Source: an uncultured Candidatus Binatia bacterium
GTDB lineage: Bacteria; Desulfobacterota; Binatia; Bin18
DNA length: 64,000 bases
Reading direction: 5' to 3'
Assembly: GCA_965214605.1 (NCBI GenBank)
Contig: OZ243961.1
Location: 608,001 to 672,000, forward strand
The position numbers and the translations under genes are program-made. The notes below the pieces were generated by a model. That model was not told the DNA's origin and did not search any database. It saw only the letters and a list, made by a program, of their open reading frames with translations. Shown here piece after piece: positions 1-12,686 of this stretch (its first letter is position 1; every line of letters starts with the position of its first letter).

Positions 1-2
1 CC

Positions 3-3000
3 GCGGCCACTCGAACCTACGACATCACCGAAGGGATTTTATGCGGGAGCTTAATCGGCTTGATATGCGCTGTGCATCTGTCCGGGTTTCGCCTATTTTC
101 CAAGAGCGGGGAGACACGCCAGTTCCGAAATCGAAGTCGATATCCCGAAGACGCATTCACCAAGGCGTTCCGCGCTCATACGGAAATCATAAACCCTGAC
201 ATTACGATTCAGTCAATTGAGGCTGTCTTCGCCGCACCTCCGCGAAAGAAAATAGCCTGGTCAGCGGACACCCTTGGGAAGCGGCTGTTTCAAACCTGGA
301 ACAATCGCTCCCCAAAAGACGCAGAGAGAGAGCACCCAGAATTTTTACTGGCCCAGGGAATCGCTTGCGAAGTCGCCAAACAGTTCTCCGGATGGAAGGA
401 ACTCGCCGACAATGTAAGCGGTGCACTGGCCTGCGCTGACAGATATCTGGCGACCCTGGGAGACTCCTTTCCAAAACTCAGTAACCTGCCACCCGGAACC
501 ACGATCAATCCAGACTCTTGTACGCTTGCCTACGATCCCGAATCGCCCTTCGTTGAGATGGTTGGTAACGAAGAAAACTGGCTCCATCAGGTAGTGGCGG
601 TTTGTGCTGGCAGGCTGAAACGAGACATGCCCGATCGTGACCTATCCTCGTCTGATTTTGCAAAGCGTCTGAACGACGCTGTTGTTACTAGTCAGCACAA
701 TGGACTGTCTTGGTTATTCGGCAACGGCCTACGCTACCTTCGGAAATCAAGCATTGAGCGGATTACCGAAAACCTTGATGTTCCACACGGGAAGCGCCAA
801 CGAGTTGAACAACTCAAAGCCTTTGCCGACGCGCTTCCTGACAATCCATTTTTCGACACCAATGGCTATGCCGAGTTTCGTACCTCCGTCGGTGGCAAGA
901 TCGCCTCATGGGTCTCGAACTACTGGAAGCGCATTTGCGAACTTGCGACGTTGCATTCTCAGCCGCCGGATATCGCTATTCCCGAAACGCTGCAAGATCC
1001 CGATAACGCCTTTCTGTTTTCTGGTCAGCACACCAACGCTGCCGGCCTCATAGACCTCTCTAATCGCATCCCTGAGCGGGTCAAAAAAGCCGGCAATGCG
1101 CTTGTTGTTCTGCGTGGAAGTTGTATTCCTGGACCGGAAGATATCGCCGTCGTTGAATCCGTTGCCGATGAGATGACCGAACTCACTGGGCAACTCTCCA
1201 TGCTCGACAACCGCATTCGGCAGGAAACCGAACGCGCCAAAGACGCCGAAAACGAAAAACGTGCCAAGGTCCTAGAATCCCTCAGGCCAAACATTCCCAA
1301 AGGTCTCAAGGATCTGCCCAAACTAAACAGCATATCAGGCGGCACCGTGGACGCTACCGGTGAGATCAAACGGCTGGAAGCCGACCTGAACTCCGTCATA
1401 CGAGCACGCCGTGAGCACTTCCGGCAACTCTCTGAATGGGCGGACAGTAACGCAGGCGGCCTTGATCCCCTGCCCATCCTTAAAGAACGCGAACAAGAGG
1501 CGCTTTCCGACCGAAACATGGACCTCGATTGTGCAGCTGAATACGCTATCCGGCGTCTGCTTGATCGCATCGGCGTCATGTCGCATCGACTGTCGCCAAG
1601 TGTAGCCGAGCAAATCCGGACCGCCATGACGCCGCTTTTTCGCAGGAAAAAAGAGGCAAACCGCTACTTCTACAATCGCAACGGCAGGATCTATCGGCAT
1701 CCCTTCAGCACCTCACGTCACCAGGCTTATGCCATAGACGTAGAGCGTGCCCACGCAACCGATTGGCTCTTGTGGTTGGAGGAGCGGACGACAGAAATCC
1801 GTAACGCTCTGCGCGCGGATCAGACACGCCTACGCGATCTTCTGTTGATGGAAGCTTTTGTCCTGACGACACGGCTCGGCGGTCTCTCTGATCGTGTACC
1901 GGGGGATCTGGCGAAACCGGAAAACGACTGTCTCAACATTCCTCCCCTGCTCAAAGCGCAGCTCGAGGCTAGGGAGGTTTCGCGCGATGTGGCCGTGCGC
2001 GCCTTCAATCTGTTCAATAGTGCTATCAATGGTCTGTCGTTTCGCGCCTTCCGTGATAGTTTCATTGTTCGCGTTAAGTTTCAGCGCCAAGATCGCGAAG
2101 AAGTATTTTATGTCCCGAAGGAACGCCCCTGGCAGGCACCAGCTGACTATGATTCAGCCAAGGGTGAGATATCTAAGGGCTTGAAGCTCTCCGCAGTCGT
2201 GCGTGACCAAACCGGGGCTGTTCTGCCGCGTGAGACAGCCAAGGGCTTGAGTAAGGCGAAGTTTCCCGAGCCGGGTACGCGTGCCCTGCTGCGTCAATCG
2301 CCTCATGACTGGTTCGTCGAACTCGATGTCCGCTCTACCCAGGCTTCGGAGTTGGCAGGGCTGCCCGTCAAGAAGAACAAAGACGGACTCAAGCGCTGGA
2401 AAGTCCTGAAAAAGCCGGCCTTTCGACTAGTCGGGCCGCCCTCGTTCAAGACGCAGCTCGACCGCGCTCTGACAAGCGGAGAGGTGAAGCTCGGCGACTA
2501 CACGCTCATCATTGACCAGCTCTTCAAACAGTCCTTGTACGTCGAAGGTGAGGAGATACACCTTTTGGCTGAACCGGTAAAGATTCGGGCAGAACTGGCG
2601 GTTCCAGTAATAGACAACCGGCCGTATCCCAAGTCTGAAACCGACTTGATATTTAACAAGATCGTTGCCATAGACCTTGGCGAGCGACGGGTCGGCTACG
2701 CGGTCTTCTCGCTCATAGACTTCGTGGAAAACGGTTGCCAAAATCCGATCAAGGTGGGGAGCGTCGCCATTCCCGCTTTCAGGAAACTGATGGCCGCGGT
2801 CCGCCGCCACCGCGGGTCGCGGCAGCCCAACCAGAAGGTCGACCAAACCTACTCGAGAGCGCTGATGCAGTTCCGAGAAAACGTGGTGGGAGACGTCTGC
2901 TCTCGCATTGAGACCTTGTGCGAATACTTCGGCGGATTTCCCGTACTCGAAAGTTCGGTGGGAAATTTCGAGACAGGGGGCCGCCAGCTGGAGATGATCT

Positions 3001-3650
3001 ATGGTTCAGTCCTGCGCCGCTACACTTTCTCCGAAGTGAAAGCCCATAAAGCCACCCGTAGCCATCATTGGTTCACAGCGGACACCTGGAAGCATCCCTA
3101 CGTCTACACCTACACCTACACCTGGAATAAGAGAGAAAAGCAATATTCCGGCCCATCCAAGCCGCTGAAGATATTCCCCGGCGTCACGATCAACCCGGCC
3201 GGCACCAGCCAGACTTGCCAGCATTGTAAGCGGAATGCCCTTCAGGCGCTGCGTAACATGACGGACAAGGTCGAAGTGGGAGAAGACGGCCGCGTAGTCC
3301 TCGGAAACGGGACGATACGGCTTCTCGAACGAGCCGATTATCTTCCTTCCGAACGAAGAAAATTTCGTCACAACAAAGCAAGGCCGCCGCTAAACGTGCC
3401 TGCCCAGAAAGGATCCCGGCTAAGCCGCGACATCACGCGTATCGCCAGACGAAACATGCGGCAACCCCCATCTTCCACAATGTCACCCGATACCACACAG
3501 TCTCGCTTCAAATGCGTGTACGTTGACTGCGGCTATGAGGGGCATGCCGACGAAAATGCCGCAATTAACATCGGCCGGCGTTTTTTGGAACGGATCGATA
3601 TGGAAACGTCGAGAGGGACGTGCCGGGACTTGACCGGGCAGCGAGAATGA
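3..3650 (+). CDS. cas12c: Type V-C CRISPR effector Cas12c (C2c3), 5' end outside the window
   Basis: Frame is open from position 3 (..TYDITEGILCGSLIGLICAVHLSGFRLF), so the true start is upstream. RuvC-I IVAIDLGE (D codon 2673), RuvC-II FPVLESS (E 2949), RuvC-III GHADENAAINIGRRF (D 3549); Zn-binding CQHC and CVYVDC. Blocks LSGFRLF, NGLSWLF, FRTSVGGKIASWVSNY, LPKLNSISGG, LLRQSPHDW, FRLVGPPSFK, RENVVGDVC and PLKIFPG match my recollection of Cas12c proteins. Adjacent solo cas1 and short-spacer array fit V-C. Confidence 0.93.
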   Translation, partial: AATRTYDITEGILCGSLIGLICAVHLSGFRLFSKSGETRQFRNRSRYPEDAFTKAFRAHTEIINPDITIQSIEAVFAAPPRKKIAWSADTLGKRLFQTWNNRSPKDAEREHPEFLLAQGIACEVAKQFSGWKELADNVSGALACADRYLATLGDSFPKLSNLPPGTTINPDSCTLAYDPESPFVEMVGNEENWLHQVVAVCAGRLKRDMPDRDLSSSDFAKRLNDAVVTSQHNGLSWLFGNGLRYLRKSSIERITENLDVPHGKRQRVEQLKAFADALPDNPFFDTNGYAEFRTSVGGKIASWVSNYWKRICELATLHSQPPDIAIPETLQDPDNAFLFSGQHTNAAGLIDLSNRIPERVKKAGNALVVLRGSCIPGPEDIAVVESVADEMTELTGQLSMLDNRIRQETERAKDAENEKRAKVLESLRPNIPKGLKDLPKLNSISGGTVDATGEIKRLEADLNSVIRARREHFRQLSEWADSNAGGLDPLPILKEREQEALSDRNMDLDCAAEYAIRRLLDRIGVMSHRLSPSVAEQIRTAMTPLFRRKKEANRYFYNRNGRIYRHPFSTSRHQAYAIDVERAHATDWLLWLEERTTEIRNALRADQTRLRDLLLMEAFVLTTRLGGLSDRVPGDLAKPENDCLNIPPLLKAQLEAREVSRDVAVRAFNLFNSAINGLSFRAFRDSFIVRVKFQRQDREEVFYVPKERPWQAPADYDSAKGEISKGLKLSAVVRDQTGAVLPRETAKGLSKAKFPEPGTRALLRQSPHDWFVELDVRSTQASELAGLPVKKNKDGLKRWKVLKKPAFRLVGPPSFKTQLDRALTSGEVKLGDYTLIIDQLFKQSLYVEGEEIHLLAEPVKIRAELAVPVIDNRPYPKSETDLIFNKIVAIDLGERRVGYAVFSLIDFVENGCQNPIKVGSVAIPAFRKLMAAVRRHRGSRQPNQKVDQTYSRALMQFRENVVGDVCSRIETLCEYFGGFPVLESSVGNFETGGRQLEMIYGSVLRRYTFSEVKAHKATRSHHWFTADTWKHPYVYTYTYTWNKREKQYSGPSKPLKIFPGVTINPAGTSQTCQHCKRNALQALRNMTDKVEVGEDGRVVLGNGTIRLLERADYLPSERRKFRHNKARPPLNVPAQKGSRLSRDITRIARRNMRQPPSSTMSPDTTQSRFKCVYVDCGYEGHADENAAINIGRRFLERIDMETSRGTCRDLTGQRE
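3105..3122 (+). repeat. In-frame hexamer tandem repeat (TACACC)x3 in cas12c, encoding YTYTYT
   Basis: Read directly: tacacc tacacc tacacc. Confidence 0.85.
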
Positions 3651-3753
3651 GCCACCATCGTTCCTATTCTCTTCCAGGCCCAAGGACTTATCATCCATAC
3701 CTCAACCTGGAAGACGTCCCCGCCTCCCCGGACGCCCTTCAAAGAGGGGAGGC
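3651..3753 (+). ncRNA. Candidate scoutRNA/tracrRNA for Cas12c
   Basis: Intergenic space between cas12c and cas1. Stem TCTTCCAGG (3670-3678)/CCTGGAAGA (3706-3714) encloses ACCTCAA (3699-3705), whose CCTC is complementary to the repeat 3' GAGG. Hairpin CGTCC/GGACG is followed by CCCTTCA (3735-3741), complementary to repeat TGAAGGG. Alternative stem GCCTCCCC/GGGGAGGC (3722-3753). Confidence 0.65.
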
Positions 3754-3757
3754 ATCA

Positions 3758-4813
3758 TCACCTTACCAGCTTTGAAGAGGAATGGGAGGTAAGGGGAATA
3801 TCGCCTGGCAGCCGATAGGAGACCTTTGGCGGACGCCCGCCTTTACGTTCACCCGCGGCGGGAACGATAAACCGGCGCATGTCGCCGGCCAGGTAAGCCC
3901 GCAGCGCCAACACGCTTCCATGCAACAGATTTTTACGGCGCACAAACTGGTGGGTAGCGGGAACGTAGACAACCTTCTCCATATCGTTCTTCAGCCCGGA
4001 CAAAGTGGCTTTGGTCAGCGAGTCAGAGGCATTGTCCGGGGGATGGGTCCGGCAGGCCCCGGCAACGGCCTCTTCAATCATGTACCGGGCTGGCTCCATG
4101 AGATCGTAGACAAGTCCCATGTAGTCGGTCCCTTCATGCAGGAATCCGTGACTGGGCGAAAGCCGGTGGATTAACAACCAGCGCAAGAGTACCCCAGACA
4201 GGAACATGGACCCTGCATCAAGGGCGGCTGGTAAAGGCCCCTCCCCTCTGCGAGTGATATCAGGGTATCCCATCCGAGTGAAATATCTCCGCCAATATCT
4301 GCGTGATTGCTCGGCTTCCCAGGCCCGTATCTGTCCAAGATTCCGTGTACGCGCCAGCCGTTTGTAGACAGCGCTTGGCATGGGCAGTGTGTTCTCTACC
4401 GCCCGAAAACGTTCACGTACTAGAGTCCGCGCAATATAGGCACGTTTAGATTTATTTGTCCGGGTAACGATCTGTCTGGTCAAAATATCGTCGGCATCGA
4501 CTCTGGGAGCTGGCAAGAAAATCGCTGGGCGGCTGATGTTGCGGCGGTGAACAAGGAGGGGCACTCGGCGAAAGGCAAGTTCGTCAATGAGAGCGACCGG
4601 AATCTGGCCAGTCGCGCCGTAGAACATGATGCAATCAAGCTGCGACAGCTCAGTATCGACCTCGCCTCCGTTATATGTGAACCGCCATAAGTTCTTTTTG
4701 AGCCTTGCTACCTGAGAGACGTATGGTAGCCACAAGGTCGTCTTGCTTCTCCGCTTGGTTGATTTCCATGTCCAAAGAGAATTTGGATGTTGAAATTGAT
4801 CAATTTTAACCAT
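3758..4813 (-). CDS. cas1: CRISPR-associated integrase Cas1, type V-C-like, stand-alone
   Basis: 351 aa with catalytic-type motifs WEAEQSRRYW, PSHGFLH and LVYDLMEP; lies between cas12c and the array; no cas2 or cas4 seen. Confidence 0.92.
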   Translation of the reverse strand: MVKIDQFQHPNSLWTWKSTKRRSKTTLWLPYVSQVARLKKNLWRFTYNGGEVDTELSQLDCIMFYGATGQIPVALIDELAFRRVPLLVHRRNISRPAIFLPAPRVDADDILTRQIVTRTNKSKRAYIARTLVRERFRAVENTLPMPSAVYKRLARTRNLGQIRAWEAEQSRRYWRRYFTRMGYPDITRRGEGPLPAALDAGSMFLSGVLLRWLLIHRLSPSHGFLHEGTDYMGLVYDLMEPARYMIEEAVAGACRTHPPDNASDSLTKATLSGLKNDMEKVVYVPATHQFVRRKNLLHGSVLALRAYLAGDMRRFIVPAAGERKGGRPPKVSYRLPGDIPLTSHSSSKLVR

Positions 4814-4873
4814 ATATGTCCTCAGTAAGAAAATCGAAAAATCATTGTAATATAAATATTTATCTGGTATACC
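4814..4873 (+). promoter_or_regulatory. AT-rich CRISPR leader / divergent cas1-array promoter region
   Basis: Strongly AT-rich against a GC-rich background; TTGTAA(4845)-N17-TATACC(4868); palindromes ATAAATATTTAT (4852-4863) and GGTATACC (4866-4873). Confidence 0.7.
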
Positions 4874-5539
4874 TCCAGTTCTGAAGGGGAATTAGAGGCC
4901 GAAAAATATGAGTTCTGAAGGGGAATTAGAGGGTGTGGAGCATGACGCAATCCAGTTCTGAAGGGGAATTAGAGGCTGAAATACGGGCGTTCCTCCAGTT
5001 CTGAAGGGGAATTAGAGGTTCTCAACAGCATGAGGAGTCCAGTTCTGAAGGGGAATTAGAGGTTCTCAACAGCATGAGGAGTCCAGTTCTGAAGGGGAAT
5101 TAGAGGTTCTCAACAGCATGAGGAGTCCAGTTCTGAAGGGGAATTAGAGGTTCTCAACAGCATGAGGAGTCCAGTTCTGAAGGGGAATTAGAGGTTCTCA
5201 ACAGCATGAGGAGTCCAGTTCTGAAGGGGAATTAGAGGTTCTCAACAGCATGAGGAGTCCAGTTCTGAAGGGGAATTAGAGGTTCTCAACAGCATGAGGA
5301 GTCCAGTTCTGAAGGGGAATTAGAGGTTCTCAACAGCATGAGGAGTCCAGTTCTGAAGGGGAATTAGAGGTTCTCAACAGCATGAGGAGTCCAGCAGGGG
5401 AATTAGAGGTTCTCAACAGCATGAGGAGTCCAGTTCTGAAGGGGAATTAGAGGCACGCGCATGACGCACCCCCCAGTTCTGAAGGGGAATTAGAGGATGG
5501 AAGGCTTCGGGCTGCCCAGTTCTGAAGGGGAATTAGAGG
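4874..5539 (+). CRISPR. CRISPR array: 16 repeats (consensus TCCAGTTCTGAAGGGGAATTAGAGG, 25 nt), 15 spacers (6 distinct), mostly 18-19 nt
   Basis: Repeats start at 4874, 4911 (5'-truncated), 4951, 4994, 5038, 5082, 5126, 5170, 5214, 5258, 5302, 5346, 5390 (20-nt variant), 5429, 5472 and 5515 (last two begin CCCAG). Spacers: CCGAAAAATATG; GTGTGGAGCATGACGCAA; CTGAAATACGGGCGTTCC; TTCTCAACAGCATGAGGAG x10; CACGCGCATGACGCACCC; ATGGAAGGCTTCGGGCTG. Orientation inferred from the leader and the 3' GAGG. Confidence 0.97.
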
Positions 5540-5560
5540 CAGGGAGGGAGGGCTGGAATC

Positions 5561-6286
5561 TCATCGCTGTCCAAGTCGAATCGCCTCGGCCAGGTCTACC
5601 GCGCCGGTGTAGAGGGCGCGGCCGATAATCAGGCCGTGTATACCGTCCGCTTTACATGGCCGCAGCCGCTCAATGTCTTCAAGACTGGCCACGCCACCAG
5701 AGGCAATAACAGGAATCTGAATTGCCCGAGCCAAGAGCCGGGTGGCTTCGATATTCACCCCTAGGGATGTACCGTCACGGATAATATCGGTGTAGACAAT
5801 CTCACCAACGCCCATATCTTGGCACTGTTCGGCAAGTTGCGTCGCCTCAAGCTCAGTCGCTTCAGTCCAGCCTTGGACAGCGACTTTCCCGTCCCGGGCA
5901 TCAATGCCAACCGTAATCCGGCCCAAAAAGCGTCTACATGCCTCAGCTACAATCTGAGGCTGCCGATAGGCTACTGTGCCCAGAATTGCACGCTGTACCC
6001 CGAGTGAGAACATCTGCTCAATCGCCGCTAGGCTGCGCAGTCCACCGCCGAGCTGAACCGGAATATGTAAGGATTGGCAGATTTTTTCTATAGCGTCAGT
6101 GTTCACGCCTGCGCCTGACATGGCGCCGTCAAGATCAACTAGGTGGAGCCGAGCGGCTCCGGCGTCTTGCCAGCGCTGTGCCACGGCGACCGGATCGTCG
6201 GAGTAGATGGTCGCCTGAGCCATATCACCTTGGTAGAGACGCACACACTGACCGGCCTTGAGGTCGATGGCGGGGATAATCTCCAT
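5561..6286 (-). CDS. hisA: ProFAR isomerase HisA
   Basis: MEIIPAIDLKAGQCVRLYQG, HLVDLDGA, VQLGGGLRS, IASGGV, IIGRALY; start at ATG 6286. Confidence 0.96.
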   Translation of the reverse strand: MEIIPAIDLKAGQCVRLYQGDMAQATIYSDDPVAVAQRWQDAGAARLHLVDLDGAMSGAGVNTDAIEKICQSLHIPVQLGGGLRSLAAIEQMFSLGVQRAILGTVAYRQPQIVAEACRRFLGRITVGIDARDGKVAVQGWTEATELEATQLAEQCQDMGVGEIVYTDIIRDGTSLGVNIEATRLLARAIQIPVIASGGVASLEDIERLRPCKADGIHGLIIGRALYTGAVDLAEAIRLGQR

Positions 6287-6291
6287 AGGAA

Positions 6292-6951
6292 TCACAGAGG
6301 AGGGTGGTGGTCGGTCACAAATTTGCCGAAGTTGGCCAAGATTTGTAGGCCGACGGCCTGGCTTTTTTCTGGGTGAAATTGGGTAGCGAAGATATTGCCT
6401 GACCAAACACTCGACGCAAAATGGATGCCGTACTCGGTGGTGGTGGCCACGATGGCCGGGTCTGTTGGGATCGGATAATAGGAGTGAACAAAATACACCG
6501 CCGCGCCCTCGGGTATCTTGGCCAAATGGGGGGCTGGTCGCTCAATGTGGAGCTGGTTCCAGCCCATATGGGGGATTTTTTGTGGACCGTTGTCGGTTGT
6601 CAGCAGAGCAGGATCAAAGCGCTCGACCGTGCCTTTAAGGATGTCCAAACCTTGCTCCCGGCCAAACTCGTAACTTTCTGAAAACAGGATCTGCATACCG
6701 ACACAAATCCCAAGCAGCGGCGTGCCGCTGTTGGCCACCCGATGGACGGTTTCGATAAGCCTACATTTAGCCAGCCCGTCCATACACGCGCTAAACGCGC
6801 CCACGCCCGGCAGTACTACTCCCGCGGCAGCCTCAATGCGGGCAGCGTCCCTGGTGATTTCAGCCGGGTAGCCCATCTTCTCGCAGGCTTTTTGGACACT
6901 CCGCAGATTGCCCATACCATAGTCAATAATCGCAATTGTGCCGAGAGGCAT
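6292..6951 (-). CDS. hisH: Imidazole glycerol phosphate synthase glutaminase subunit HisH
   Basis: IIDYGMGNLRSV, LPGVGAF, LGICVGMQ, PHMGWN, YFVHSY, QFHPEKS; GGAGG RBS before ATG 6951. Confidence 0.96.
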   Translation of the reverse strand: MPLGTIAIIDYGMGNLRSVQKACEKMGYPAEITRDAARIEAAAGVVLPGVGAFSACMDGLAKCRLIETVHRVANSGTPLLGICVGMQILFSESYEFGREQGLDILKGTVERFDPALLTTDNGPQKIPHMGWNQLHIERPAPHLAKIPEGAAVYFVHSYYPIPTDPAIVATTTEYGIHFASSVWSGNIFATQFHPEKSQAVGLQILANFGKFVTDHHPPL

Positions 6952-6977
6952 TCTCTCTCCTCCGCTCCCTCCCTCTC

Positions 6978-7001
6978 CCTCTAATTCCCCTTCGGAGCTG
7001 G
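6978..7001 (-). repeat. Isolated inverted copy of the CRISPR repeat in the hisH 5' region (anti-repeat on the + strand)
   Basis: + strand CCTCTAATTCCCCTTCGGAGCTGG = minus strand CCAGCTCCGAAGGGGAATTAGAGG, 22/24 identical to CCAGTTCTGAAGGGGAATTAGAGG. Confidence 0.93.
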
Positions 7002-7031
7002 CCAGAGATATAGGTATAGGGCATAGGACAT

Positions 7032-7063
7032 CGGCTATTTCACAATCACACTGCAAAATAGCC
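7032..7063. other. Inverted repeat/hairpin CGGCTATTT...AAATAGCCG between the gst gene and the orphan repeat
   Basis: Perfect 9-bp stem read directly; could be a terminator, an operator, or the 3' hairpin of a small RNA. Confidence 0.5.
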
Positions 7064-7085
7064 GTGTATTAAAGTGGCGTGTTGT

Positions 7086-7808
7086 CTATTCCGGAACCGG
7101 CCGCGCCCGCTGGTTGTAGAGCATCTTGCGCAGGCGGTCTTTCTCTTCCTGCGACAGCTTGGAGAAGTCCATGGACAGCTCGCTGCCAACGGCCATGCCT
7201 TTTTTCACCCCGTCCCGTTCCGAGAGTTCCTCAAACCAGCGTTTGAAATATTTAAACTCGTTGATGTCCTGTCCCTGGGCCTCCCAGCTGACCGTCCAGG
7301 GATAACAAATCATATCGGCGATCGTATACTCATCACCGGCCAGATAAGGCTGCCGATAGAGCTGATTATTTAAGACGCCAAACAGACGGTTGACCTCATC
7401 TGTGAAACGCCGCACTGCATATGTCTGATCACCCTGTTCATCGCCCAAGCGCCGAAAATGACCACACTCTCCGCTTTTGGGGCCTTGGTTGGCCATCTGC
7501 CACATGACCCACTGGTTGACGACGTAACGCCCCCGCACGTCTTGGGGATAGAACTTGCCGGCCTTCTCGGCAATATACATCATCATTGCTCCAGATTCAA
7601 AAATACTGATCGGCTCGCCCCCGCCCAAGGGATCGTGGTCGACCATGGCGGGCATCCGGTTGTTAGGACAGATCTGTAGAAATTCGTCCGTGAACTGATC
7701 TCCACGGCCAATGTTGCAGGGGATCATATTGTAGGCTATGTCACACTCTTCGAGCAGAATAGTCACCTTTTTGCCGTTTGGCGTGGGCCAATAGTGTAAG
7801 TCAATCAT
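7086..7808 (-). CDS. Glutathione S-transferase, YfcG/YghU-like (Nu class)
   Basis: YWPTPNGKKV, PNNRMPAMVD, IFESGA, YTIADMICYPW. Confidence 0.9.
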   Translation of the reverse strand: MIDLHYWPTPNGKKVTILLEECDIAYNMIPCNIGRGDQFTDEFLQICPNNRMPAMVDHDPLGGGEPISIFESGAMMMYIAEKAGKFYPQDVRGRYVVNQWVMWQMANQGPKSGECGHFRRLGDEQGDQTYAVRRFTDEVNRLFGVLNNQLYRQPYLAGDEYTIADMICYPWTVSWEAQGQDINEFKYFKRWFEELSERDGVKKGMAVGSELSMDFSKLSQEEKDRLRKMLYNQRARPVPE

Positions 7809-7937
7809 GCTGCGTACCTCCTTTTTTCCGATATCGACCGACCGGACGTTATGCCACCCTACACCGATTCGACTGACTGGAACAAGCAGGTCTGGATGCG
7901 CAAGCGCCGGGATCTTGCCTGTCGCCGAGCGAACGGC

Positions 7938-8540
7938 TTACGCATCTGTCCACTCGGTATTCCAGCGTGGAAAAAAACGCGGCACCCGCCGGCAGTATGC
8001 AGCATAGGCCTGGCCAAAACGCTGGTGTAATTCCCGCTCTTCAAACACGACAATCACATACAACAGGGGCAGACTCAGTGCCGCCCATACGTATAAGATC
8101 AGATAATTGGCCACAAAGGCGAAGCCTAGCACTGATAGAAACACTTCTAGATAGCGCGGGTGTCGTATCCGGGCATAAATCCCCTCCTGTAACAAGCTGG
8201 ACGGTTGGCTCTGAGAGCGCAGTTCGGGGAGACCGATCATGATACGCAGGGTCAAATATTTGCGGTGCTGGAGTGCAAGCGCGCCTGCTCCGCTCAGACA
8301 CACTACGGCCAGTCCCAGACAGACGGCGTTTGTCTCGTACTTGGTGGCCAACAGCGCACCGCGAACTACAAACAGGCCTCCGCCAAGCATGCTCAGCTCG
8401 GCTCCCACCAGACCATACGTCCAGCCCACCCCCCGTTTACGCCAAAATTCGGCAAAAGGGTGGATGCACAGCCAGAACAACAGCCCCGGCGGGAGGCCGA
8501 TCAGAAACGCGAACGCAATCCCGTAGCGCAACTCATCCAT
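7938..8540 (-). CDS. Isoprenylcysteine carboxylmethyltransferase/PEMT-family membrane protein
   Basis: TM helices; GIYARIRHPRY, EERELHQRFGQAYAAYCRRVPRFFP; start placed at ATG 8540. Confidence 0.85.
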   Translation of the reverse strand: MDELRYGIAFAFLIGLPPGLLFWLCIHPFAEFWRKRGVGWTYGLVGAELSMLGGGLFVVRGALLATKYETNAVCLGLAVVCLSGAGALALQHRKYLTLRIMIGLPELRSQSQPSSLLQEGIYARIRHPRYLEVFLSVLGFAFVANYLILYVWAALSLPLLYVIVVFEERELHQRFGQAYAAYCRRVPRFFPRWNTEWTDA

Positions 8541-8747
8541 TAGGTGCACGCCGACCCTCCGCTCCCAACCGACCGCAAGGTCCCCAACTCCATAACAGCC
8601 GATATCACCATTCCTAGGTATGAAGCACCCCCCAATCAGCCCGAGACACCAGGCGGCCTGCCTCCCTCCCCTTGTCTCTTCCCAGATCAGAATAGTACAA
8701 CCGCTTAGAAGACAACATCTTGTTGCGGACATCCGAGATTGGAGGAT

Positions 8748-9803
8748 ATGATGCTGAGGGCACTTGCAGTGTGTAGCGGAAAAGGTGGTGTAGGCAAAAC
8801 GCTGTTATCGGCCAGTCTGGCCCGGATTATTCAGCAAGCAGAAAACTGCAACGTCTTGGCAGTCGATTTAGACCTAACAGTCAGTGGGCTAACCCTCTTG
8901 TCGTTTCACAATAAACTTGAGCTTGATCAAGTCCCAATCTCACTCTTTGACTACCTGACCGGTGATGACAATGCCCAAAGTGCGCTGTTCGGAGCCTTAC
9001 AGGCCGCCGTCACATCAAGGGGCGAATATCCTTCGGCCGTGCTCTACCAGCGTCTAGATCACGTTTTTGTCCTGCCCGCCTCCACAGAAAGTGAGCGTCC
9101 GGACTGGAGCCGGTCTGCCCAGATTGAACTCGACCTGGCGATTGAAAAAATTGCCCAGCTGCGACATTTTGCCGCTGAGTCGCTGGACATCGACTATCTG
9201 ATTTTTGATACTCAAGCTGGCTTGGGCAGCCTCAGTCTGGCCGCGGCAACGCTCAGCGATATGACCCTTATCGTGATGGAAGAAGACGATATCAGCTGGT
9301 TCACCGCGCTGCGCATGTTCACCGAAATTACCGAGTTGAACAGACGCCTCAAAAACCGCTCGCGCAGCTACTTCCTGGCCAACAAAGTCCAAGCTGGGCT
9401 GATGGATATGGCCAGCAAACTGAAAGCCTTTTCCTTTCTGCCACCGATCCCGTTCGATAGCTGGATGCAGCGTCTGGTGTCGAACTCGACCGCCGTTGTC
9501 CTTGAAAAAGAGTTTGAAGACAGCGACTTCTTTCGTCGTTTACAAACCCGGGTGTGGCGAGAAATGGCCAGCCTTTTTGGACTCAGCCAGAGTCCCCAAA
9601 AAAATGCCTCGTTTAGCTGGTGGCGGCAGCTCAAGGGACCGGTCGAGCCAATGCCGAAAGCCAAGCCCACAGCGTCGTCCCCCCCTCCCCGCCTCAGCCC
9701 GAATTTCCAGAACAGTCAGCCAGAAAAAACCACGCCCTCCGCCGCCAAAGCCCAGCCTGCTGACCAACCTCACCGGTTAGACGTCAAAAGTGAAGTCCGT
9801 TGA
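8748..9803 (+). CDS. ParA/MinD-family P-loop ATPase with Pro-rich C-terminal tail
   Basis: Deviant Walker A SGKGGVGKT, AVDLDL, DYLIFDT; GGAGG RBS. Confidence 0.8.
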   Translation: MMLRALAVCSGKGGVGKTLLSASLARIIQQAENCNVLAVDLDLTVSGLTLLSFHNKLELDQVPISLFDYLTGDDNAQSALFGALQAAVTSRGEYPSAVLYQRLDHVFVLPASTESERPDWSRSAQIELDLAIEKIAQLRHFAAESLDIDYLIFDTQAGLGSLSLAAATLSDMTLIVMEEDDISWFTALRMFTEITELNRRLKNRSRSYFLANKVQAGLMDMASKLKAFSFLPPIPFDSWMQRLVSNSTAVVLEKEFEDSDFFRRLQTRVWREMASLFGLSQSPQKNASFSWWRQLKGPVEPMPKAKPTASSPPPRLSPNFQNSQPEKTTPSAAKAQPADQPHRLDVKSEVR

Positions 9804-9804
9804 T

Positions 9805-10782
9805 CTAATGTGACGGAATCAGGACGACTTTCCCCGTCGTACGTCGGGCGGCCAGATAGCGATGGGCATCGGCCGCGTGGGCAAGGGGAAACGTCCGGTC
9901 CATAACAGGCCGCAGGGTTCCGGCTTGAACCATGGCCAGCAGCTCCTGCATCGGCCGACGATGCAGGGCGACGTACCACGGCGGCATGCCCAGATGCAGA
10001 CCGCTGACCGTAATATTACGGATCAAAATCTGAGTGGCATCAAGCATCGGCAGGGAGCCACTCGCCCGGCCATAAATGACCAGCCGGCCCATCGGCACCA
10101 GGCAGTTCAGGCTACGGGTCAACACGTCTCCGCCAACACATTCCAGCACCACATCGACCCCCCGTCGGTCGGTCATACGCAGGATCTCAGACACAAAGTC
10201 GTGCTCAGCATAGTTAATGACTTCCTGGATGCCAAGGTGGCGTAAACGTTCTAGCTTTTGCTCGCTCGAAGCCGTTCCAAATACGCGGGCCCCCCACAGC
10301 TTGGCCAGCTGGACGGCGATTGTGCCGACCCCGCTGGCAGCGGCCTGGACCAACACAAAATCTTGGGGCTGAAGGCGCGCGCTCGTCTTCAGGAGATGAT
10401 AGGCAGTGGCACCGGCAACCGGCATACCAGCCGCAGCCTCAAAACTCAGGGAATCGGGAAGAGGGTAAACCGCCTCCGGCGGTGCCGTGACATACTCAGC
10501 ATAGCCACCAGTCCCAACCCAGGCCATGACCCGATCGCCAGGCCTGACCGTGCTGACCTCAGCCCCGGTCCGAGCAACCCGACCGGCTACCTCCAGACCG
10601 GGTATCAACGGCAGCGGGTAGGCGAACGGGTAGCGGCCCTGCCGCCGACCGAGGTCAGAATAATTGACCCCTGCCGCCGCCACCTTGATCAGAACCTGCT
10701 CGTCTTCGACAGACGGTTCATCCACATCCTCATAGCACAATACCTCGGGCCCGCCGAACTGGTGAAAACGGATGGCTCGCAT
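9805..10782 (-). CDS. NADPH:quinone oxidoreductase (MDR family)
   Basis: GGPEVL, AAGVN, PGLEVAG, AAASGVG, GKVVL. Confidence 0.9.
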   Translation of the reverse strand: MRAIRFHQFGGPEVLCYEDVDEPSVEDEQVLIKVAAAGVNYSDLGRRQGRYPFAYPLPLIPGLEVAGRVARTGAEVSTVRPGDRVMAWVGTGGYAEYVTAPPEAVYPLPDSLSFEAAAGMPVAGATAYHLLKTSARLQPQDFVLVQAAASGVGTIAVQLAKLWGARVFGTASSEQKLERLRHLGIQEVINYAEHDFVSEILRMTDRRGVDVVLECVGGDVLTRSLNCLVPMGRLVIYGRASGSLPMLDATQILIRNITVSGLHLGMPPWYVALHRRPMQELLAMVQAGTLRPVMDRTFPLAHAADAHRYLAARRTTGKVVLIPSH

Positions 10783-10812
10783 GGTTCACTCTGTGCCTGG
10801 AGGACGTATATC

Positions 10813-11751
10813 TTAGAATACGGCCAGCGGATTCACCGGTGAGGCGGTTCCCTTGACCAGCACTAGCGGTGCAATGATCGACAGAAACGTCCAGCGCGAT
10901 CGCTCGGCACACGCTTGAGCGACGGCCTCTAGGTCACAGTTGTCTATCAGGTGCAGGCCCATGGCCACAATTGTGACGGCATGGATGGGTAACATCAGCT
11001 TGTCGTAGCCGCTAGGCAGCACATCGCTAGCACCGTCTCCGGCCATGGCGGCAACTTCGTGGGCATGCAGCCACGGCAGGCAGGCCGCCCCGAGTCCGGC
11101 CATCCCTTCGCTAAACGAGTCCCACGGTCCTTTTGATCTCAGCCGGGCGTGCCGCCCGGTACGAACAAACAGGACGTCTCCACTCTCGACCCGAAAGCCA
11201 CCCGCCTGTTCGGCCTGGTCAAGGTCGGCCGGGGTGATTTCCTCTCCGGGTTCAAGCCACTCTTTGCTCTTCAGCCGAGGGATATCGATCAATACTCCCC
11301 GGGACACGATCCCGTCTTTGAGCGCGTCAATAGCCCCGTTTTTGGCGCCCTTGGTCCCAACGTCTTCTGACGAATAGCCGTTATACATTTGGCCCTTGTG
11401 AAAGACGTGGCACAGCGCGTCCAAATGTGTGTTGGCCAGCCCGTGCGGCGCAATTGCAAAGTAATCGGCACTATATGGAATCGGCGCAGCACTGCTCTCT
11501 CCTTGAGACCCAGTCTGTATCATGAGGTGCATCACCGGAGTCGGATTATCAGGACCGGGTTCGGTCGCTAAAGGCAGAGACATAGACACGGTGTGGCCGT
11601 CTTGGATCAGAGTGGCAGCCTGGGCCCGCTTTTCCGGCGTAATATAGTTGAGCGCTCCCACTTGGTCGTCCTTGCCCCATTTGCCCCAGTTGCTGAGGGT
11701 GATGAAAAACTCGCTGACTTGCGCTTCGCTCAGATCACGATTGGCTACCAT
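10813..11751 (-). CDS. Cyclase family (kynurenine formamidase-like) metal hydrolase
   Basis: NWGKWGKDDQVGALN, HGLANTHLDALCH, RGVLIDIP, GTASPVNPLAVF. Confidence 0.88.
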   Translation of the reverse strand: MVANRDLSEAQVSEFFITLSNWGKWGKDDQVGALNYITPEKRAQAATLIQDGHTVSMSLPLATEPGPDNPTPVMHLMIQTGSQGESSAAPIPYSADYFAIAPHGLANTHLDALCHVFHKGQMYNGYSSEDVGTKGAKNGAIDALKDGIVSRGVLIDIPRLKSKEWLEPGEEITPADLDQAEQAGGFRVESGDVLFVRTGRHARLRSKGPWDSFSEGMAGLGAACLPWLHAHEVAAMAGDGASDVLPSGYDKLMLPIHAVTIVAMGLHLIDNCDLEAVAQACAERSRWTFLSIIAPLVLVKGTASPVNPLAVF

Positions 11752-11867
11752 ACTCGTCCCCCCTTTGGGCGGCATCATAGTCAGCGCTTATTGGAGCTGT
11801 CAAGGAAAATACACTAGCCACTCGGCGGACAGCTATGATACACACAGACATGTTCCAAACGCAGGTT

Positions 11868-12686
11868 ATGATGGATCTTCTGACTCGACTTACGGAGGCG
11901 CTTGCCCCCTACGGACTGAATCTGGTCGGCACCACTACCCGAGCGGCGTATGAGTCGCTCGTACCCACCTCCTACCGTCTTGAACCGCTCCTGCCGCAGA
12001 CCCAAACCGTCATCGTTATCGGCAACGGGGGAAGCGCTTTTTGGACCACCTTCCGCCCCTACGCCGACCGCCATGCGGGCGACCCCCACCCACTGGATGA
12101 CTACACGGTTGAGATTATCGAACACAGCCTGACGCCGATCCTCAAGCCCTCAGGGAGAGGCTATCGCTATGTGTACCCGTTTCGCTTTGGGACCGAACCG
12201 GTCTCGTTTATGCACCTAGCCCAGGCCGCGGGTCTGGCCGGACCAAGTATTCTGGGTATTATGATTCATCCGGTCTACGGTCCGTGGCTAGCGCTGCGCG
12301 CCGCCGTATTAGTGGCCCACGACCTCTCCCATCCGCCCTCAGCACCGGGCTTCAACCCCTGCCCCAGCTGTATCGAAAAGCCCTGCATCCAGGCCTGCCC
12401 AGCGGGTGTGATCGGTGCGCGGCACGGTTGGAACATTTCTGGATGCGCCAAGCACCGCCTCGCCGCGGATCAGTGCGCGGCTTTCTGTCACGCTCGCCAC
12501 AGCTGCGTATACGGTCGGAAGCACCGCTATCCGCCGGATGCCCTACGCCACCATCAAGCCCAGAGTCTAGCCACCATGAGGCAATACGAAGAAGAGGACG
12601 ATAAGTCGTTTACAGCGCACAGGCGCTCTGTTGGGGCTGGAAACCAAAGCAATGGAGCAGTGCAAACCCGTTCGACGATACCTTGA
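11868..12686 (+). CDS. CblC/MMACHC-like cobalamin-processing domain with C-terminal Fe-S ferredoxin motif
   Basis: HPLDDY, HLAQAAGL, IHPVYGPWLALRAA, then CPSCIEKPCIQACP and further Cys residues; start uncertain (11835-11871). Confidence 0.6.
   Translation: MMDLLTRLTEALAPYGLNLVGTTTRAAYESLVPTSYRLEPLLPQTQTVIVIGNGGSAFWTTFRPYADRHAGDPHPLDDYTVEIIEHSLTPILKPSGRGYRYVYPFRFGTEPVSFMHLAQAAGLAGPSILGIMIHPVYGPWLALRAAVLVAHDLSHPPSAPGFNPCPSCIEKPCIQACPAGVIGARHGWNISGCAKHRLAADQCAAFCHARHSCVYGRKHRYPPDALRHHQAQSLATMRQYEEEDDKSFTAHRRSVGAGNQSNGAVQTRSTIP

Follow-up and report, generated by a model that had tools for sequence, protein, structure and literature searches.

The window analyzed here, a stretch of 64,000 nucleotides from an uncultured Candidatus Binatia bacterium (genome G000), contains a type V-C CRISPR-Cas locus and, outside of its array, a solitary copy of the CRISPR repeat in the 5′ leader of the histidine biosynthesis gene hisH. 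This raises the question whether the orphan repeat is an element through which Cas12c controls a biosynthetic mRNA, or a remnant of the array next to it. With a probability of about 0.85, we regard it as the old, slightly degenerate terminal repeat of the neighboring array, which was displaced by an inversion, and as a scar rather than a dedicated regulator. The features around hisH are the following (positions of the window):

5561 to 6286, minus strand: hisA, single copy (TIGR00007, 269 bits)
6292 to 6951, minus strand: hisH, single copy (TIGR01855, 220 bits)
6952 to 6977, minus strand: purine-only leader of hisH with a GGAGG Shine-Dalgarno sequence, as read from the sequence; the purine stretch at this place is shorter in the sister genome G006
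6978 to 7001, minus strand: orphan repeat, 22 of 24 nt identical to the array consensus, probably the former terminal repeat of the array
7033 to 7065, no strand assigned: stable hairpin between the stop codon of the GST gene and the orphan repeat (-19.8 kcal/mol, z -4.3)
7086 to 7808, minus strand: glutathione-S-transferase-like (GST) gene, YfcG-like (NF010579, 3.2e-60; Pfam GST_N and GST_C)

Read on the minus strand from 7001 to 6978, the orphan repeat is CCAGCTCCGAAGGGGAATTAGAGG, and the array consensus is CCAGTTCTGAAGGGGAATTAGAGG. The two mismatches are located at repeat positions -20 and -17, and the 3′ 16 nt (positions -1 to -16) are identical to the array repeat. It is followed by 26 nt (6977 to 6952) consisting of purines only (GAGAGGGAGGGAGCGGAGGAGAGAGA) and then by the hisH ATG (6951 to 6949); the GGAGG lies 7 nt before the ATG and 14–18 nt after the repeat. 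The first-pass annotation had reported the same match, the perfect 3′ part and the distance of 26 nt to the ATG, all of which are borne out by the sequence. Its statement that the next 18 nt correspond to one spacer length does not hold, as the spacers of the array have 19, 20 or 10 nt and none has 18. A tblastn search of the genome found one hisH and one hisA as well as, elsewhere, a hisF-like gene with 33% identity.

The 16-nt core of the repeat, searched with up to two mismatches, has 17 matches in the window, namely the 16 repeats of the array on the plus strand and the orphan on the minus strand. By chance 0.09 matches are expected (100 shuffles), and 17 were reached in none of the 100; by our own arithmetic, a 24-mer with at most two mismatches is expected about 1e-6 times in 128 kb. 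The orphan is a true repeat of the adjacent Cas12c array on the sense strand of hisH, far above chance, as had been claimed. The same search of the 4.37-Mb genome returned 20 matches: the 16 array repeats, the orphan, two repeats of a mini-array remnant (G000:C1:176453 and 176497) and one match with two mismatches, which equals the rate of the reversed-pattern control (1 match). A dispersal over the genome independent of CRISPR, which the first-pass annotation had named as a refutation of its idea of Cas12c control, was not seen, the core being confined to these places.

The array itself belongs to a locus with the following features:

1 to 3650, plus strand: cas12c (NCBIfam Cas12c NF033950, 1037 bits)
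3660 to 3745, plus strand, ends approximate: tracrRNA/scoutRNA-like intergenic RNA, conserved in 8 loci
3758 to 4813, minus strand: cas1 (Pfam Cas_Cas1, 7.9e-14; TIGR00287)
4814 to 4874, plus strand: AT-rich CRISPR leader with TTGTAA-N17-TATACC (found by eye), duplicated at a mini-locus
4875 to 5539, plus strand: CRISPR array with 16 repeats of 24 nt, one 20-nt spacer being present 10 times

Because of this order of elements, the array runs head-on into the 3′ end of hisA, and the orphan repeat stands reversed at the far end of the his gene pair, 1.44 kb from the array and inverted relative to it.

The origin of this arrangement becomes apparent from the relatives. The genes hisH and hisA are present in all seven other genomes of the genus; in six of them hisA and the GST gene are convergent, opposite to the window, and in G002 the two are unlinked. 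An array together with cas12c was found in two of the seven only, the sister genomes G006 (at least 55 repeats) and G007 (13 repeats). In both it is located directly upstream of hisH, with array, hisH and hisA in the same orientation. The degenerate terminal repeat of G007, CCAGCTTTGAAGGGGATGGGGC, joins the hisH start (ATG ATT GCG) without a gap, and the terminal repeat of G006, CCAGTTTTGAAGGGGAATTGGAGAA, is followed by 12 nt and then by the hisH start GTG ATT GCG. At position -20, the orphan and the terminal repeat of G007 have the same T-to-C change. In line with a link to the cas locus, for which the first-pass annotation had proposed this comparison, the same-genus genomes without the cas locus are also without the orphan sequence. 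The four other Cas12c loci inspected (G046 and three MAG loci) contain no such element next to hisH.

A blastn comparison of 24 kb against G006, G007, G003 and G004 showed that the left flank and the part from the GST gene onward (starting at 7052 or 7086) are collinear, and that the cas block (window -224 to 5540) is collinear in G006 and G007 only. The segment from 5553 to 6952 is the only inverted one in each of the four comparisons, which makes the inversion a derived state peculiar to this genome. The GST gene, collinear with G003, G004, G006 and G007, here lies upstream of hisH in the same direction. The sequence GATTCCAG after the hisA stop codon is common to this genome, G006 and G007; here it abuts the array, being followed by 13 nt (5540–5552, plus-strand coordinates) and then the last array repeat. 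The two junctions are:

5540 to 5552, no strand assigned: left inversion junction, 13 nt (CAGGGAGGGAGGG); homology to the hisA 3′ flank of G006 and G007 starts at 5553
7002 to 7032, no strand assigned: right inversion junction, 31 nt, which may include the old last spacer

No homology of 7002–7032 to the relatives was found, and in a comparison of this stretch with the CRISPR leader 226 of 500 shuffles scored equally. A 10-nt part of the left junction, AGGGAGGGAG, also occurs in the hisH leader (4 of 500 shuffles scored equally), and the last array repeat with its flank (5512–5553) forms a 42-nt inverted repeat of 79% identity with the orphan and its leader (6964–7005). The inverted repeat and the shared AGGGAGGGAG hint at a duplication or an inverted-repeat-mediated event beyond a simple two-break model, and the unassigned source of the 13 nt at 5540–5552 and the 31 nt at 7002–7032 counts against an exact placement of breakpoints and mechanism. 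The hairpin at 7033–7065 is homologous to the hairpin between hisA and the GST gene in G003 and G004 and is followed by no U-run on the minus strand. Its loop, a further point against the simple model, has the opposite sense compared to G003 and G004, with the 21 nt towards the GST gene keeping their orientation, and may have been turned by a palindrome-mediated loop flip.

The arrangement was also found in contigs assembled from sequencing runs. A 51-kb contig of run X1 covers 5424–7400, two contigs of X5 (5514–5850 and 6759–7287) bridge both junctions, and a contig of X6 covers 6906–7056, each with 0 differences. These runs belong to three studies, X1 possibly being the sample of origin, and contigs can hide rare inversions; as far as the contigs of the three studies show, the arrangement is real and fixed.

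Because the arrays of the sister genomes end at hisH and the cassette is inverted only here, the most likely explanation of the orphan is that it was once the terminal repeat and has remained joined to its leader. In an ancestor shared with the two sister species, a module of cas12c, tracrRNA, cas1 and array would have been inserted directly upstream of hisH, replacing the native hisH promoter, and the last array repeat would therefore have become part of the hisH 5′ leader. Subsequently, in this genome alone, a 1.46-kb segment comprising the terminal repeat, the purine leader, hisH, hisA and about 8–21 nt after the hisA stop codon would have been inverted, with breakpoints within 5540–5553 and 7002–7032. 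The repeat would have been kept with hisH, now facing away from the array and lying behind the co-directional GST gene. The identity of the repeat, synteny and orientation, the sequences at the junctions and the lost native promoter motif are direct observations; hisH-hisA would now be transcribed from upstream, either by read-through of the GST hairpin or from a promoter in the 84-nt gap.

One finding speaks against a mere scar: no mismatch is present in the 3′ 16 nt of the orphan, but the terminal repeats of the two sister genomes G006 and G007 have degenerated in their 3′ parts. The perfect end could be due to recent separation, gene conversion or selection, and an origin as a scar does not exclude a function acquired later.

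Degenerate terminal repeats, as known from CRISPR arrays, deviate from the consensus by substitutions, stand at the trailer end and are followed by chromosomal sequence that is no spacer. The orphan resembles this type in its substitutions, its presumed former place at the trailer end and the chromosomal sequence next to it, but it lies 1.44 kb off the array, inverted, and forms the 5′ leader of a gene for biosynthesis. Repeat-like sequences that stand alone beside CRISPR loci have been ascribed to the recombinogenic nature of repeats and regarded as raw material for later exaptation (bioRxiv 10.1101/2023.03.03.530964, in excerpt). Like these, the orphan lies outside the array and beside the locus and matches over the 16 bp used there as a criterion. 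The standalone repeats of that report are kept as such in related loci, whereas the sister homologue of the orphan is the terminal repeat of an array; they also often form mini-arrays of two repeats, the spacer of which partly matches a cas or cargo promoter. Compared to such a mini-array of the crlRNA or CreR type, the orphan is a single repeat with no second one, and a search for a target with fewer than three mismatches over the full length found none. The excerpted text of the report deals mostly with types I and V-A and mentions V-C once, in another context (10.1101/2023.03.03.530964). We take the orphan for a standalone repeat which arose by recombination in a V-C locus and which is unusual in its position, the leader of a biosynthetic operon. 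It offers a worked example of the birth of a standalone CRISPR repeat by a local inversion with one end at the array trailer. The inversion has put a repeat that is tracrRNA-competent by its sequence into the leader of an essential biosynthetic operon, and such repeats are the kind of raw material thought to be recruited into regulatory cr-like RNAs.

The promoter of hisH was compared among the same genomes. The CRISPR-less genomes G001, G003, G004 and G005 have a conserved TTGATT-N17-AATAAT upstream of hisH, ending at its start, and G002 has a variant form. This motif was called by a promoter scan in G003, the sole CRISPR-less genome scanned. It is absent in the present genome, G006 and G007, where CRISPR sequence takes its place. 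No promoter was called on the minus strand between the GST stop codon and hisH (6952–7088), nor on the hisH strand within or after the arrays of G006 and G007. These negative results are weak, because the scan, which uses consensus promoters, also misses the TTGTAA-N17-TATACC of the CRISPR leader. A leader-like promoter upstream of the orphan was considered and rejected, as this stretch does not resemble the CRISPR leader (its score is reached by 226 of the 500 shuffles).

For G006 and G007 these results allow the tentative and rather doubtful idea that the array is the transcription unit of hisH-hisA, which would be transcribed as the 3′ tail of the pre-crRNA. The same state would formerly have existed in the present lineage, a Cas12c cut just upstream of the terminal repeat would make the 5′ end of the mRNA, and the effector could occupy the repeat abutting the ribosome-binding site. 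The inversion seen here would then be an escape, rewiring hisH-hisA to the GST operon and leaving a Cas12c-bindable tag in the leader. The terminal repeats lie 0–12 nt from the hisH start in G006 and G007, which leaves no room for a promoter, the native promoter motif is lost with no promoter-like site called on the hisH strand within or after the arrays, and the arrangement has been kept over about 17–23% nucleotide divergence. On the other hand, a long array that is not translated is ill suited to read-through, the promoters of this phylum may evade a sigma-70 scan, and cas12c of G007 is split into two frames. A coarse search of the literature found no precedent for arrays driving downstream genes. 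The Cas12c array at the former site of the hisH promoter, flush with the start codon, is the more interesting by-product of this analysis and raises the question whether a CRISPR array can be the transcription unit of a housekeeping operon, the mRNA of which is shaped by the naturally DNase-free, RNA-processing Cas12c. If the array does not transcribe the his operon, the finding is an ordinary genome rearrangement.

In G014, too, a gene begins directly behind the trailer end of a V-C array (L039, around 11837, minus strand): the terminal repeat is followed by 18 nt and a co-oriented ORF beginning VDDPKVYLAGPEVF. A metagenome scan for more repeat-to-hisH junctions, with a pattern which allowed gaps of 9–39 nt and leaves a 49-nt distance like that of the window outside, gave 28 stretches, 0/28 with a CRISPR repeat. 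These stretches apparently represent the 3′ end of the gene preceding hisH, which we take to be hisB and in which GAAGGGGA occurs.

Even if the orphan is a displaced terminal repeat, it is conceivable that Cas12c binds it. The gene cas12c starts about 105 nt before the window (G000:C1:607895), and its match in the whole genome covers model positions 1–1244 with no internal stops, i.e., it is full length. The residues D, E, and D of its RuvC domain align with those of Cas12c2 and Cas12c1. The tracrRNA-like RNA has 42 invariant columns in an alignment (A1) of 8 loci, records labelled Candidatus Binatia, Nitrospirales, and Bryobacterales among them; Rfam gave no match in 1–12000 at E up to 1. The CCCTTCA of the tracrRNA-like RNA is the complement of TGAAGGG in the repeat; in G014 and G046, where the repeat has TGTAGGG, the RNA has CCCTACA, a compensatory change which supports the pairing. 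The prerequisites for binding, namely the inferred pairing positions (-17 aside), the tracrRNA and the RuvC triad, are intact. Because the orphan keeps all bases pairing with the tracrRNA except the terminal one at -17, binding by Cas12c and tracrRNA is plausible if the repeat is transcribed as part of the mRNA, and may take place as an incidental event.

The first-pass annotation had gone further and proposed the repeat as a possible functional cr-like element, by which hisH would be controlled in this genome in a Cas12c-dependent manner. Cas12c with its tracrRNA would bind the repeat in the hisH-hisA mRNA, the ribosome-binding site would be occluded or cut, or a guide would be released from the leader, and histidine biosynthesis would be tied to the level of CRISPR-Cas. 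Its material basis stands: full-length Cas12c with the RuvC triad, the conserved RNA and the 16 intact 3′ bases, which include all inferred pairing positions, only the terminal pair at -17 being lost. The orphan also lies in the coding strand, with the GGAGG 14–18 nt and the ATG 26 nt behind it. Between it and the co-oriented GST gene there is no canonical terminator, and an effect on hisH or hisA would have consequences for the cell, as neither gene has a second copy. The dedicated regulatory role is not supported, since synteny provides a sufficient non-functional origin, the inverted terminal repeat, which fully accounts for the presence of the orphan. In addition, it is not kept as a standalone element in the sister loci. 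We therefore consider such an element unlikely.

The proposed cut one spacer length downstream of the repeat follows an earlier ruler model of Cas12c cutting. This model is contradicted by a report in which processing by Cas12c2 depended on the six bases that begin the downstream repeat and failed on a substrate whose downstream repeat had been replaced by polyA (PMC9522604, in excerpt); this requirement was established for Cas12c2, a different ortholog from the Cas12c here. The orphan is not followed by CCAGTT at a distance of 17–22 nt, and its 26 nt downstream contain no repeat-like sequence. Because the downstream repeat start needed by Cas12c2 is missing, cleavage at the ribosome-binding site is unlikely. 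Like the pre-crRNA substrate of Cas12c (PMC9522604, in excerpt, with reference to Harrington et al. 2020), the orphan has the tracrRNA-pairing bases of an upstream repeat and then about 18 nt, but it lacks the downstream repeat and is predicted as a possible substrate for binding only.

The release of a guide is similarly disfavored. The would-be guide of 18 nt has no other match in the genome with fewer than three mismatches, and its 10 other sites at exactly three mismatches (full-length matching) include none near the cas locus. In its own DNA the PAM position is occupied by GG, not by the TN described for Cas12c (PMC9522604, in excerpt). The hisH leader shows no fold beyond chance (z -0.16 and +0.46); a z of -3.2 obtained for a longer piece is due to the GST hairpin. 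To our knowledge, nothing comparable to non-canonical guides derived from mRNAs has been shown for Cas12c. In the Cas9 case, where host mRNAs with repeat-like sequence can likewise be loaded as guides, Cas9, tracrRNA and RNase III are involved (PMC8224270, in excerpt), whereas the would-be guide here is without a target found. Solitary repeat units of phages act as RNA anti-CRISPRs (PMC10651486, in excerpt), and the orphan could titrate the effector in a similar manner; those units are virus-encoded, while the orphan is chromosomal and its origin is traceable to the host array.

The 42-nt inverted repeats could also make hisH-hisA an invertible cassette that flips between an array-driven and a GST-driven orientation, and species of the genus do show both orientations. 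This is very unlikely. In four runs of four studies, the contigs over the junctions have the orientation of the window only and no strand-changing joint is listed, an argument which is weak because contigs drop rare variants. Furthermore, recombination between these repeats would keep one copy at each end of the cassette whichever way it points, yet downstream of hisA an inverted copy is missing in G006 and G007, and no invertase or recombinase was present among the seven neighboring ORFs scanned (Cas12c, Cas1, HisA, HisH, GST, methyltransferase-like, and ParA-like). That the orphan is a chance resemblance or an assembly artefact has next to no probability, as no point in favor of it turned up, 17 core matches stand against 0.09 expected with 0/100 shuffles giving as many, and independent contigs of other studies match both junctions exactly.

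Solitary core matches in the other genomes of the family are about as common as in the reversed-pattern control, except for one exact 16-mer in G057. This lone core (L041, position 3082) lies in another genus and far from the broken cas12c of that genome, with no further repeat similarity in its surroundings, and may be due to chance, as by our own arithmetic about 0.25 such matches are expected over 55 genomes. Matches to the Cas12c model were obtained in 6 of the 55 family genomes. Those of G007 (C1:680370-684028), G014 (C1:3134370-3137937), and G057 (C1:3529346-3533069) are split over two to three adjacent frames, representing frameshifts, decay or assembly errors, and those of G000, G006, and G046 look intact.

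Between a thiolase-like gene and cas12c, about 1.15 kb are found in this genome (L043 6631–7776, window -1370 to -224) compared to about 137 nt in G006; two small ORFs in this piece have no Pfam match. At G000:C1:176150-176512 (L044, around 4150–4512), the 5′ end of cas1, the leader of the array and a repeat-spacer-repeat unit occur a second time in degenerate form, inside an ORF with a match to the BKACE family and upstream of an alpha/beta-hydrolase gene.

The array comprises four spacers of 19 nt, the 20-nt spacer present 10 times and a first spacer of 10 nt. The 20-nt spacer and its repeat form 10 tandem copies at 5019–5429, one of the repeats carrying a 5-nt deletion (5391–5409). In run X1 the amplified unit is assembled as a 74-nt contig with a depth of 685, compared to 80 for the flanking 51-kb contig, and because of this difference the 10-fold amplification is real and no assembly artefact. 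With up to three mismatches allowed, the genome contains no further match to this spacer, and viral contigs contain 0 exact matches. At 4899–4912, the first spacer has only 10 nt and the second repeat begins with TGAG rather than CCAG. In the contigs of X1 and X5, 9 additional bases follow position 4910; with these, the spacer would have 19 nt and the repeat would start normally, so the anomaly in this genome is either a 9-nt deletion or an assembly error.

Finally, the last spacer (5497–5515) matches the own chromosome with one mismatch at G000:C1:3815639 and with two at a second site, C1:181630; by our own arithmetic, about 0.002 one-mismatch matches are expected per spacer by chance. The one-mismatch site lies inside a 680-aa ORF, which by its motifs may resemble a squalene-hopene cyclase, and is preceded by TT, which fits the TN PAM. 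With a Cas12c that only binds DNA, this self-match could be a case of self-repression rather than autoimmunity.
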